Below are positions 3-4,118 of a DNA stretch of 4,118 nt, piece by piece. The stretch lies in IMG/VR virus record IMGVR_UViG_2534681774_000012, positions 1 through 4,118 of that record, one strand, 5' to 3'. Position 1 is the stretch's first letter. Every line of letters begins with the position of its first letter. A program made the translations under genes and the position numbers. The notes beneath the pieces were generated by a model, which saw only the letters and a list, made by a program, of their open reading frames with translations, searched no databases and was not told where the DNA came from. This DNA is from a virus (lineage: Duplodnaviria > Heunggongvirae > Uroviricota > Caudoviricetes).

Positions 3-215
3 GTGCCTGATTTGATTGACGAACCCATGAATAACACCACGCGTCTGCAATGCATGAGTGCTGCCGTGATTGCGCTGACACGATGGGAACCCCGCATTGC
101 CCTGGATGCCATCGACGTTGTCTGGAAAGCGGGAGGCCGCGCCGGGGTGACACTGTCGGGCACTGTCATGCAGACCATGCAGAATGTTGAGTTAACCATC
201 ACGCTGAGGGAGTAA
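3..215 (+). CDS. W: Baseplate assembly protein W (gp25/GPW family), 3' portion only; the gene begins upstream of the window
   Basis: Open frame runs from the window edge to TAA at 213-215; the GTG at 3-5 is an artefact of the window boundary, not a real start. The C-terminal sequence (...LTRWEPRIALDAIDV...GVTLSGTV...ELTITLRE) resembles the recalled P2 gpW C-terminus, and the gene sits immediately upstream of J as in P2. Confidence 0.8.
   Translation: MPDLIDEPMNNTTRLQCMSAAVIALTRWEPRIALDAIDVVWKAGGRAGVTLSGTVMQTMQNVELTITLRE
206..212 (+). promoter_or_regulatory. Shine-Dalgarno-like element (GAGGGAG) for J, embedded in the 3' end of W
   Basis: GAGGGAG at 206-212, 6 nt upstream of ATG at 219; W stop TAA at 213-215 lies between, consistent with translational coupling. 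Confidence 0.6.
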
Positions 216-218
216 ATC

Positions 219-1115
219 ATGCCCGCCGTTGACCTTTCCCAGTTACCGGAACCCGCCATCATCGCGGAGCCTGACTTTGAAGCAATTCTGGCTGACACAA
301 AAGCCATGATGATTGCGTCCTATCCCGCCGAACAGCGTGAAGCCGTTTCCGCCGCACTGGAGCTGGAATCGGAACCCCTTAACGTTATCGCTCAAACCAT
401 GTCGTTTCGTGAAATGCTGTTACGCCAGCGGGTCAATGAGGGTGCACGCGCCTGCATGTTAAGCCACAGCGCCGGGACAAACCTGGACAACCTCGCAGGC
501 AATATGAACACAAAGCGCCTGGTTATCACTCCGGCAACGGATACCACCGACGCGGTGATGGAGAGCGACACCTCGCTGAGACTGCGGGCGCAACGGGCGT
601 ATGACGGCCTGAGCGTTGCTGGCCCGTCAGGCGCATACGAGTATTTTGCCCGCAGCGCCAGCGGTCTGGTGCGTGATGCGCGGGCTATCAGTCCGTCTCC
701 GGCAAATGTGACGGTTTCCATCCTGTCCACTGAAGGCGACGGCACGGCAACGGAGGCGTTGCTTAATACCGTTCGCGCCGTTCTGAATGCAGAGGATACC
801 CGCCCGGTGGCCGACCGCCTGACCGTACAGAGCGCCAGAATCGTGACATGGCGGCTGAATGCAAAACTGTACTTTTACCCCGGCCCGGAATCCGAACCTA
901 TTCTGGCCGCGGCGGAATCGTCATTCAGGAAGTGGCTGGCTGAACAGGGGCTTATCGGTCAGGACGTGGCGTTGTCAGCCATTGCTGCCGCACTGCATGT
1001 GCACGGTGTGCAACGCGTGGAGATAATCGAACCCACACAAAATATGGCCATCAGCGACATACAGGCGGCGCGCTGTGAGTCATTCACCATCAGCGAAGGT
1101 GGGCGTAATGAGTAA
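219..1115 (+). CDS. J: Baseplate assembly protein J (Baseplate_J family, T4 gp6-like wedge protein)
   Basis: 298-aa ORF with ATG start and an upstream SD; size close to P2 gpJ (about 300 aa). Position between W and I and GC-rich coding composition fit a P2-like baseplate gene. Confidence 0.88.
   Translation: MPAVDLSQLPEPAIIAEPDFEAILADTKAMMIASYPAEQREAVSAALELESEPLNVIAQTMSFREMLLRQRVNEGARACMLSHSAGTNLDNLAGNMNTKRLVITPATDTTDAVMESDTSLRLRAQRAYDGLSVAGPSGAYEYFARSASGLVRDARAISPSPANVTVSILSTEGDGTATEALLNTVRAVLNAEDTRPVADRLTVQSARIVTWRLNAKLYFYPGPESEPILAAAESSFRKWLAEQGLIGQDVALSAIAAALHVHGVQRVEIIEPTQNMAISDIQAARCESFTISEGGRNE
1097..1103 (+). promoter_or_regulatory. Shine-Dalgarno-like element (AAGGTGG) for I, inside the 3' end of J
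   Basis: AAGGTGG at 1097-1103, 4 nt upstream of ATG at 1108. Confidence 0.5.
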
Positions 1116-1640: not shown

Positions 1641-3611
1641 ATGAGTACCACAACACGTAAATTTAAAACCGTTATCACCAATACGGGTGCCAAAAAATTA
1701 GCTCAGGCAGCCGCGCCAGATGGTAAGCCTGTCCGCCTGACTCATATGGCCGTGGGTGACGGCGGCGGCACTTTACCCTCGCCAGACAGTAAGCAGACCC
1801 GTCTGGTGCATGAGGTGTGGCGACACACTGTTAATCGCGTCTTCCTGGACGCAACACATCAGAACCGCATTATTGCGGAGCTGGTTGTTCCTCCAGAAAC
1901 GGGCGGATTCTGGATCCGGGAAATTGGTGTGTTTGATGAGCACGGCGATTTAATCGCAGTAGGCAATACTGCCGAAAGTTACAAGCCAACCGTTGCCGAA
2001 GGGTCAGGACGTGCACAAACATTTCGCACCATTCTGACCGTATCCAGCACTGCCACTATGGCGCTTACCGTGGATAACACCATGGTAATGGCCACAGTGG
2101 ATTACGTGGATGACAAACTGAAAGAGCATGAACAGTCACGACGTCACCCGGACGCCTCGCTGACCGCAAAAGGCTTTGTTCAACTTAGCAGCGCCACTAA
2201 CAGCACATCTGAAACGCTGGCTGCGACGCCAAAAGCTGTTAAGGCGGTAATGGATGAAACGAACAAGAAAGCGCCCTTAAACAGTCCTGCACTGACCGGA
2301 ACGCCAACAACGCCAACTGCGCCAAAAGGGACTAATAATACTCAGATCGCAAGCACGGCTTATGTGATGGCCGCGATTGCCGCACTTGTAGACTCGTCGC
2401 CTGACGCACTGAATACGTTGAACGAGTTAGCGGCGGCGCTGGGAAACGACCCGAATTTTGCGACCACCATGACTAAAGCGCTTGCGGGTAAGCAACCGAA
2501 AGATGCCACCCTGACGGCGCTGGCCGGGCTTGCTACTGCGGCAGACAAGTTTCCGTATTTTACGGGGAATGATGTCGCCAGCCTGGCAACCCTGACAAAA
2601 GTCGGGCGGGATATTCTTGCGAAATCGACCGTTGCCGCTGTTATCGAATACCTCGGTTTACAGGAAACGGTAAATCAGGCTTCTGGCGCATTACAGAAAA
2701 ACCAGAACGGCGCAGATATTCCAGGAAAAGATATCTTCACCAAAAATATTGGTGCCTGCCGCGCATATAGCTCATGGGTGGATATTGGTGGCGATAGTCA
2801 GGTCTGGACAACCGCGCAATTTATTTCGTGGCTGGAGAGTCAGGGAGCATTTAACCATCCTTACTGGATGTGCAAAGGCTCATGGGCTTATGCAAATAAT
2901 AAGGTCATTACAGATACAGGTTGCGGAAATATTTGTCTTGCAGGTGCTGTGGTGGAAGTTATTGGCACTCGCGGCGCAATGACCATACGCGTTACTACGC
3001 CGAGCATGTCCAGCGGTGGCGGAATTACTAACGCTCAATTCACTTATATTAATCATGGTGATGCTTATGCTCCTGGCTGGCGAAGAGACTACAACACGAA
3101 AAACCAGCAGCCTGCATTTGCTTTAGGGCAAACAGGAAGCAGGGTTGCAAATGATAAAGCTGTTGGCTGGAACTGGAATAGCGGCGTTTATGATGCAGAT
3201 ATCAGTGGCGCATCGACATTAATCCTCCACTTCAATATGAATGCGGGGAGTTGCCCTGCTGTACAGTTCCGCGTGAATTATAAGAACGGCGGTATCTTTT
3301 ATCGTTCAGCGCGTGATGGTTATGGCTTTGAAGCTGACTGGTCAGAGTTTTACACCACAACCCGCAAACCCTCTGCGGGGGATGTTGGTGCATATACGCA
3401 GGCAGAATGTAACTCAAGGTTTATTACAGGTATTCGCCTGGGCGGTCTGTCATCTGTTCAGACATGGAATGGTCCCGGCTGGTCTGACAGGTCAGGTTAT
3501 GTCGTTACGGGTTCAGTTAACGGAAACCGTGATGAATTAATTGATACAACTCAGGCAAGGCCAATTCAGTATTGCATTAATGGAAGGTGGTATAACGCGG
3601 GGAGTATTTAA
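1641..3611 (+). CDS. H: Tail fibre protein H (P2 gpH-like); conserved N-terminal shaft/attachment region plus a divergent distal receptor-binding region
   Basis: 656-aa ORF. The N-terminal about 350 aa match recalled P2 gpH motifs (MAVGDGGG, IIAELVVPPETGGFW, AESYKP..AEGSGR, HEQSRRHPDASLTAKGF, QLSSATNSTSETLAATPKAVK, ALVDSSPDALNTLNELAAALG, FPYFTGNDVASLATLT). It is followed directly by a tail-fibre assembly gene. ATG at 1641 lies 2 nt after the I stop. Confidence 0.9.
   Translation: MSTTTRKFKTVITNTGAKKLAQAAAPDGKPVRLTHMAVGDGGGTLPSPDSKQTRLVHEVWRHTVNRVFLDATHQNRIIAELVVPPETGGFWIREIGVFDEHGDLIAVGNTAESYKPTVAEGSGRAQTFRTILTVSSTATMALTVDNTMVMATVDYVDDKLKEHEQSRRHPDASLTAKGFVQLSSATNSTSETLAATPKAVKAVMDETNKKAPLNSPALTGTPTTPTAPKGTNNTQIASTAYVMAAIAALVDSSPDALNTLNELAAALGNDPNFATTMTKALAGKQPKDATLTALAGLATAADKFPYFTGNDVASLATLTKVGRDILAKSTVAAVIEYLGLQETVNQASGALQKNQNGADIPGKDIFTKNIGACRAYSSWVDIGGDSQVWTTAQFISWLESQGAFNHPYWMCKGSWAYANNKVITDTGCGNICLAGAVVEVIGTRGAMTIRVTTPSMSSGGGITNAQFTYINHGDAYAPGWRRDYNTKNQQPAFALGQTGSRVANDKAVGWNWNSGVYDADISGASTLILHFNMNAGSCPAVQFRVNYKNGGIFYRSARDGYGFEADWSEFYTTTRKPSAGDVGAYTQAECNSRFITGIRLGGLSSVQTWNGPGWSDRSGYVVTGSVNGNRDELIDTTQARPIQYCINGRWYNAGSI
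3598..3604 (+). promoter_or_regulatory. Shine-Dalgarno-like element (GGGGGAG) for G, inside the 3' end of H
   Basis: GGGGGAG at 3598-3604, 9 nt upstream of ATG at 3614; H stop TAA at 3609-3611. Confidence 0.6.
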
Positions 3612-3613
3612 TT

Positions 3614-4118
3614 ATGATGCACTTAAAAAACATTACTGCTGGCAACCCTAAAACAAAAGAGCAATACCAGCTAACGAAACAATTTAACATCAAATGGCTT
3701 TATTCAGATGATGGAAAAAACTGGTATGAGGAACAAAAGAACTTTCAGCCTGATACGTTGAAAATGGTCTATGACCGTAACGGCGTTATTATTTGTATTG
3801 AAAAGGATGTTTCAGCAATTAATCCAGAAGGCGCAAGCGTCGTTGAATTACCTGATATTACAGCAAATCGCCGGGCTGATATTTCGGGTAAATGGATGTT
3901 CAAAGATGGCGTAGTGATAAAGCGAACTTATACCGGGGAAGAGCAGAGGCAGCAGGCAGAGAATGAAAAGCAAAGCCTGTTGCAACTTGTCAGGGATAAA
4001 ACCCAGTTATGGGACTCACAGCTACGGCTGGGCATCATTTCCGACGAGAGTAAACAAAAATTAACAGAGTGGATACTCTTTGCGCAGAAAGTCGAATCTA
4101 CAGACACTTCCAGCCTGC
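3614..4118 (+). CDS. G: Tail fibre assembly chaperone G (Tfa family), 5' portion; the ORF runs off the 3' end of the window
   Basis: Open frame from ATG 3614 (tandem ATG at 3617) to the window end with no stop, which is why it is missing from the ORF track. Translation MMHLKNITAGNPKTKEQYQLTKQFNIKWLYSDDGKNWYEE..FQPDT..NPEG.SVVE.PDIT.NRRAD.SGKWMFKDG closely matches the recalled P2 gpG N-terminus. Position immediately after H. Confidence 0.85.
   Translation, partial: MMHLKNITAGNPKTKEQYQLTKQFNIKWLYSDDGKNWYEEQKNFQPDTLKMVYDRNGVIICIEKDVSAINPEGASVVELPDITANRRADISGKWMFKDGVVIKRTYTGEEQRQQAENEKQSLLQLVRDKTQLWDSQLRLGIISDESKQKLTEWILFAQKVESTDTSSL

Follow-up and report, generated by a model that had tools for sequence, protein, structure and literature searches.

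A probably phase-variable, Mu S'-type tail fibre tip in a P88-like prophage of Escherichia coli

The window and its relatives

The window (the whole stretch of DNA that was analysed, 4,118 nucleotides) is a tail-gene block from a P2-like prophage of the Xuanwuvirus/Peduoviridae type. Its genes belong to a locus with the order W-J-I-H-G, as for the P2 gpH-type fibres of Peduoviridae (Table 1). The window differs from the chromosome of E. coli FDAARGOS_1059 (positions 2530209-2534326) by a single base, at position 2723, and its reported identity to E. coli O111:H2 strain 12A is 100.0%. The nearest deposited phages are Escherichia phages 520873 and 503458, P88 and P884B11, all of which are Xuanwuvirus (Peduoviridae). 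For the DNA flanking the window, we used the FDAARGOS_1059 region (L007), and coordinates in other sequences refer to P2 (L006), the ETEC-2264 region (L008) and phage 520873 (L001).

In FDAARGOS_1059, the locus reads H, tfa(+), tfa(-), silent tip(-), recombinase(+), and H is annotated as 'phage tail protein' (WP_000108566.1). The two candidate starts of gene I differ in source: RefSeq places it at L007 8108, giving an 8-nt overlap with the end of J, while the GTG start comes from a mechanical list of open reading frames. Across window positions 2550-4118, G+C content falls from approximately 0.54 in the constant part of H to 0.47 in its variable tip and 0.37-0.40 in the chaperone gene. This stepwise fall is consistent with separate origins of an invertible cassette and the P2-like backbone.

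Table 1. Features of the tail fibre locus, in window coordinates unless prefixed L007 (E. coli FDAARGOS_1059)
Feature	Position	Strand	Remarks
W, 3' end	3-215		
J	219-1115		
I	1075 (GTG, mechanical ORF list) or 1108 (RefSeq) to 1638		
Tail fibre gene H	1641..3611	+	ORF, 656 aa; P2-type constant part fused to a Mu S'-type variable part
Constant (Sc-equivalent) part of H	1641..2640	+	Tail-collar fibre domain aa 6-153; Phage_fiber_2 repeat aa 173-213
gix/cix-type inverted repeat, 34 nt	2641..2674	.	Putative left boundary of invertible segment
Variable (Sv'/S'-type) receptor-binding part of H, predicted	2675..3611	+	aa 346-656
H/chaperone-gene stretch	3558..3960	+	Last 18 H codons and chaperone 5' part; ~69-70% DNA identity to P2 H/G and silent module
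Tail fibre assembly (chaperone) gene, Mu U' type	3614..4118	+	First 168 codons; cut by window end; in full L007 10614-11147
Silent alternative tip, predicted	L007 11707-12543	-	Outside window; RefSeq 'hypothetical protein' from internal codon
Inverted partner repeat	L007 12560-12593		94% complementary to the first repeat
Serine recombinase/invertase	L007 12648-13235	+	Just past second repeat, outside window; Resolvase and HTH_7

The constant part of H and the break with P2

The N-terminal part of gpH is an ordinary P2-type fibre base. Pfam finds PF12571 (E = 3.4e-52) and PF03406 (E = 2.6e-21) in it, and its DNA is 96% identical to that of P88 and phage 520873. A BLASTP alignment to P2 gpH (NP_046775, translated from L006) is continuous from the N-terminus through ...VAAVIEYLGLQETVN, and similarity is kept to ...IEYLGLQETVN, which is aa 345 of gpH. 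Relative to P2, a 46-aa repeat is missing once, and the last ~170 of these 345 residues are almost identical to P2 gpH. Beyond aa 345 the alignment is sparse and heavily gapped, and the P2-type distal receptor-binding part was not found in gpH after this residue by BLASTP against P2 gpH. In blastn, DNA similarity to P2 H (91.7%) stops exactly at nt 2674; the break with P2 lies at aa 345/346 (nt 2674/2675). The original prediction had described gpH as P2-like to about aa 350 and divergent from about aa 355 (nt 2700), so the break it saw is real but sits slightly further upstream.

The two sides of this break also differ in composition, in agreement with the earlier description of the distal part as rich in W, Y, N and G and containing Cys. 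Comparing aa 346-656 with aa 1-345, tryptophan makes up 3.9% vs 0.6%, tyrosine 4.8% vs 1.4%, asparagine 7.7% vs 4.6% and glycine 12.9% vs 6.4%. Cysteine makes up 2.3% of the distal part (seven residues) and is absent from the first 345 residues.

Within the constant part, the number of Phage_fiber_2 repeats (~46 aa each) differs between phages. There is one in the window (2157-2279, aa 173-213) and two in P2, and the number also separates our locus from P88, 520873 and 503458. The H gene of ETEC-2264 (L008 3273-5687) has 528 nt more than ours on the upstream side of the junction and contains several repeat matches of ~80 nt. Because repeat number varies among the H genes of close relatives, fibre length differs among near-identical prophages.

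Identity of the variable tip

The distal part of gpH has close and well-annotated relatives. Compared as proteins, aa 346-656 share 98% identity with P7 Sv, 95% with both Mu S' and the SfMu protein, and 89% with P1 Sv' (~303-311 residues aligned); P88 has a silent copy with 96% identity. In a megablast search of phage records, nt 2700-3611 gave 98.8% identity to the P7 C segment, where the match is annotated 'Sv; carboxy-terminal end of tail fiber protein gpS'. S' of Mu and D108, annotated 'carboxyl terminal end of tail fiber protein (S') in G(-) phage', followed with 95.0-95.4%, SfMu with 94.1% and P1 Sv' with 87.3%. P7 Sv is the closest allele, with DNA similarity beginning at nt 2685, and gpH differs from it at seven residues: I365, S378, V380, D381, M456, D566 and R649 (T, A, L, N, T, N and T, respectively, in P7).

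A solved structure covers the same part. When we searched PDB sequences with phmmer, gpH aa 334-656 matched 8JU3, 'Tail fiber protein S, Tail fiber protein S'', with E = 1.6e-218 (a whole-sequence value) in a residue-for-residue alignment. A structural paper on phage Sf14 ascribes 8JU3 to Mu gp52 and lists among its references Mori et al. 2024, Virology 593:110017, a study of the Mu(-) tail fibre structure (PMC11821841).

A rival reading, that of the original prediction, is that this distal part is a new receptor-binding fold with an unfamiliar class of receptor. Pfam alone might give that impression, since the distal part yields nothing but a sub-threshold gp37_C match (20.3 bits vs a cutoff of 22.5), so domain databases by themselves leave it unannotated. 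However, its full length is 95-98% identical to Mu S' and P7 Sv, it matches 8JU3, and decades of genetics stand behind the Mu G segment and the P1/P7 C segments. These identity and structure matches already refute a new fold, to which we give almost no probability. The distal part can instead be assigned to the variable receptor-binding module of the Mu S'/D108 S'/P7 Sv/P1 Sv' type, one that is already characterised. The original prediction was right to see a receptor-binding module that determines host range and is of non-P2-distal origin. Its suggestion that the inserted domain may be uncharacterised does not survive, as Mu S' and P7 Sv are well-characterised fibres that align at high identity along the full length, the very observation it had named as grounds for abandoning the idea.

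It had also been proposed that the final stretch of gpH becomes P2-like again, i.e., that an internal domain had been swapped. We looked for a second breakpoint near aa 595 and rejected it, as DNA identity to Mu S'/P7 Sv stays at 95-99% to the end of H and into the next gene, and the P2 resemblance of the last 70 aa amounts to 37% identity with the end of P2 gpH. The impression of a P2-like end arises because the stretch spanning the last H codons and the chaperone gene start is approximately 69-70% identical in DNA to P2 H/G: blastn gives 69.8% to P2 (L006 1957-2360) and 69.0%, inverted, to L007 11760-11357. This resemblance reflects old shared ancestry of the fibre tip and not a second crossover. 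The swap is thus not internal and has no second breakpoint in H. The whole gpH C-terminus and its chaperone gene form one module, which passes position 3560 and reaches beyond the window end.

Chaperone genes and the silent alternative tip

The gene that follows H encodes a tail fibre assembly protein with 95% aa identity to Mu U' and a strong Pfam match (PF02413 Caudo_TAP, E = 1.1e-29). Further downstream in the source genome, the DNA between the two repeats holds, after the S'-type tip and this U'-type chaperone gene, a second chaperone gene and a 'hypothetical protein', both on the opposite strand. Read in frame from the repeat, the latter gives ...LGLQETVNRARNAVQKNGDTLSGGLTFENDS... and ends ...RPIQKYINGTWYNVAQV, which is P2-H/Mu-S-like. 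A P2-like distal part is thus present at the locus, silent and on the other strand, 2 kb downstream. This silent tip is in fact a 3' part of H with neither promoter nor start codon, which would be expressed solely after inversion. The FDAARGOS_1059 locus therefore carries two in-frame alternative C-termini in opposite orientation, each with its own chaperone gene.

The recombination site and invertase

The junction between the two parts of H coincides with a 34-nt repeat, TTATCGAATACCTCGGTTTACAGGAAACGGTAAA, at 2641-2674, which encodes ...VIEYLGLQETVN. Inside it, a 26-bp site occupies 2641-2666, and we take its central TC (2653-2654) to be the crossover dinucleotide, as in gix/hix sites generally. 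The repeat matches the Mu G-segment boundary repeat, annotated as a boundary in the Mu record, at 32 of 34 positions. Its inverted partner lies 2885 nt away, downstream. SfMu and Mu likewise have 34-bp inverted repeats, which are the target of Gin (PMC4406740). Just past the partner repeat, the recombinase gene is an intact ORF whose product is 86% identical to Mu Gin. In Mu and P1, the Fis-dependent recombinational enhancer (sis) is located inside the invertase gene, in its 5' part. P88 and phage 520873 share the locus order of FDAARGOS_1059, and a DNA invertase is annotated in both.

We read the H junction as a functional-looking gix/cix site of a Gin/Cin-type invertible segment and not as an anonymous recombination scar, so the tip swap would be a programmed, reversible switch. 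An alternative is that a one-off recombination event, illegitimate or homologous, grafted a foreign tip onto a P2 gpH and became fixed, with the repeats and invertase surviving as relics. The two repeats of the locus do mismatch at 2 of 34 positions, both in the outer half-site, and the authors of the SfMu study suspected that one change beside the core could lower inversion (PMC4406740). However, the central TC and inner halves are identical in the two repeats, and the invertase ORF has no break.

Relic sites can persist, and P2 provides an example that bears on the same alternative. At the constant/variable junction, the same position as in our locus, P2 H (L006 1125-1158) retains a gix-like sequence, TTATCGAATATCTCGGTTTACAGGAAACGGTAAA, and the part of the P2 tail region that we examined has no annotated invertase. 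For this reason, the P2 sequence is probably either left over from an ancestor with an invertible segment or a hotspot at which modules are exchanged. According to Haggård-Ljungquist et al. (1992), P2, Mu and P1 have reportedly exchanged parts of their tail fibres horizontally, and a relic site in P2 fits with this.

Both orientations in public genomes

The fixed-graft alternative can be set against genomes that carry the segment the other way round. We built the flipped junction computationally by joining the constant part, up to the repeat centre, to the reverse complement of the segment's far end. E. coli ETEC-2264 and a second genome contain this sequence, with 100.0% identity across 633 nt. 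ETEC-2264 and FDAARGOS_1059 share accessions for eight proteins (V, W, J, I, both chaperones, the recombinase and the next tail protein), and in ETEC-2264 the order of the two chaperones is swapped and the S'-type module is inverted, with 98.5% DNA identity. A near-identical prophage region therefore shows exactly the flipped arrangement.

Across 5,426 complete E. coli genomes, the window's junction (at least 80% of junction length) occurs in 126. The alternative, P2-H-like tip junction occurs in 355; since fixed P2-type H genes would match the same query, flipped copies can number no more than this. Both orientations occur in public genomes, in different strains. Direct measurement of inversion in cultures has been published for P2-like prophages of EPEC E2348/69 (PMC4272514). 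Together with the intact invertase and the matching repeat cores, these observations make a fixed one-off graft very improbable. For the source strain itself, we infer inversion from its intact repeats, its intact invertase gene and the opposite orientation in the near-identical prophage region. Nothing that we observed speaks against the reading we prefer, a phase-variable S'-type tip on an invertible segment of a P88-like E. coli prophage, which is very likely correct as a whole.

Comparison with known systems

A close precedent for the switch as a whole is Mu, whose S' (gp52) and U' (gp51) are G(-) products. The likeness of the variable part extends from the gix site to the stop codon, and the chaperone, the boundary repeat (save 2 nt) and the adjacent invertase are shared as well, in the same gene order, in which the two tip-chaperone pairs point towards one another. 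There are also differences. Our locus has a P2/P88-type constant part (PF12571 N-terminus, 345 aa) and not the Mu Sc, it belongs to a P2-like prophage whereas Mu is a transposable phage, and its variable part carries approximately 15 substitutions.

P7 holds the closest allele of the tip, as a C(+) product, and in P7 and P1 switching is likewise done by a serine invertase (Cin), acting at cix sites. However, the invertible Sv part of these phages is much longer (~520 aa in P7), with the cix site ~650 nt upstream of where similarity to the window begins. They also differ in the constant part and baseplate adaptor, and in P7 the chaperone gene is split into Ua and Ub.

P88 and phages 520873 and 503458 are the closest relatives in the backbone (~96% DNA identity through W, J, I and the constant part of H), and they share the locus architecture, including the invertase. 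P88 has the same S'-type tip in the silent orientation. P88 was sequenced with its segment the other way round, and the published work on its host range deals with the other tip (PMC5285337). The expressed tip of phage 520873 (H at L001 7641-9626) is a hybrid that matches the window's tip from aa 492 on alone (88% aa identity). The stretch before this shared part is different and begins ...IEYLGLRELGTSGEKIPLLSTANT, as in P7. The hybrid suggests further recombination within the variable part.

P2 gpH aligns with ours throughout the N-terminal 345 aa, and the P2 fibre tip motif and gpG chaperone are distantly related to ours (37% aa, ~70% DNA). However, the only distal part in P2 is a fixed one of Mu S type, the counterpart of the silent alternative tip here. 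Every defining feature that we tested, both of Gin/Cin-type invertible segments and of the S'/Sv' tip family, is present at the locus.

Proposed mechanism and host range

Based on the homologous systems, we propose that the switch works as follows. The constant part of H would attach the fibre to a P2-type baseplate. Downstream of the recombination site, an invertible segment of ~2.9 kb would supply two alternative tips, each followed by its own chaperone gene, and the Gin/Cin-family serine invertase encoded just beyond the segment would flip it. In the window's orientation, the S'-type tip and U'-type chaperone are in frame and would be expressed from the late operon. After inversion, the P2-H/Mu-S-like tip and its chaperone would take over. 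By analogy with its homologues, the tip would be a trimer, folded by the chaperone, that binds lipopolysaccharide (LPS) and so sets which enterobacterial strains are adsorbed. Through the invertase, a population of lysogens would then yield two types of virion with different host ranges. Our analysis establishes the sequence identities, the inverted repeats, the neighbouring invertase gene and the occurrence of both orientations; expression of the fused gene, LPS binding and the actual host range of this allele are predictions from homologues.

Mu G(+) particles (with S and U) infect E. coli K-12, and the G(-) host range includes E. coli C, Citrobacter, Erwinia and others (PMC4406740). The two Mu fibres are said, in the Sf14 paper, to recognise different LPS regions (PMC11821841). 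In P1, Sv and Sv' control host specificity through LPS: outer-core sugars are the reported ligands of S, and O-antigens those of S' (PMC13172314).

Membership of this family does not, however, settle what a given allele binds. Despite >95% identity between the S' parts of SfMu and Mu, SfMu requires the O-antigen of S. flexneri serotype Y, and S. flexneri did not support plating of an induced Mu lysate (PMC4406740). Receptor specificity is not uniform within the S'/Sv' family, and fine specificity is not safely transferable between alleles. The original prediction had called the specificity of the distal domain unknown. This no longer applies to the module family, which is known, and holds narrowly for the exact LPS epitope that the allele binds. 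It is possible, though we think it rather doubtful, that the seven substitutions relative to P7 Sv and the further differences from Mu S' give this tip a fine LPS specificity (core type or O-antigen) unlike that of every tested member. If true, this would be a new allele specificity and not a new kind of module.

Implications

Nothing at this locus is new in kind: it is a known module in a known arrangement, and another copy of a textbook host-range switch in a common family of E. coli prophages. It matters mainly for annotation. To automatic pipelines, the fused gene is no more than a 'phage tail protein' and the silent tip a 'hypothetical protein', and precise names are now possible for both. 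Since the orientation in an assembly captures one state of the switch, a host-range prediction made from a single assembly would be incomplete. The module is common to P2-like, Mu-like and P1-like phages, and it thereby illustrates the horizontal exchange of a cassette, tip plus chaperone, at a conserved recombination site.
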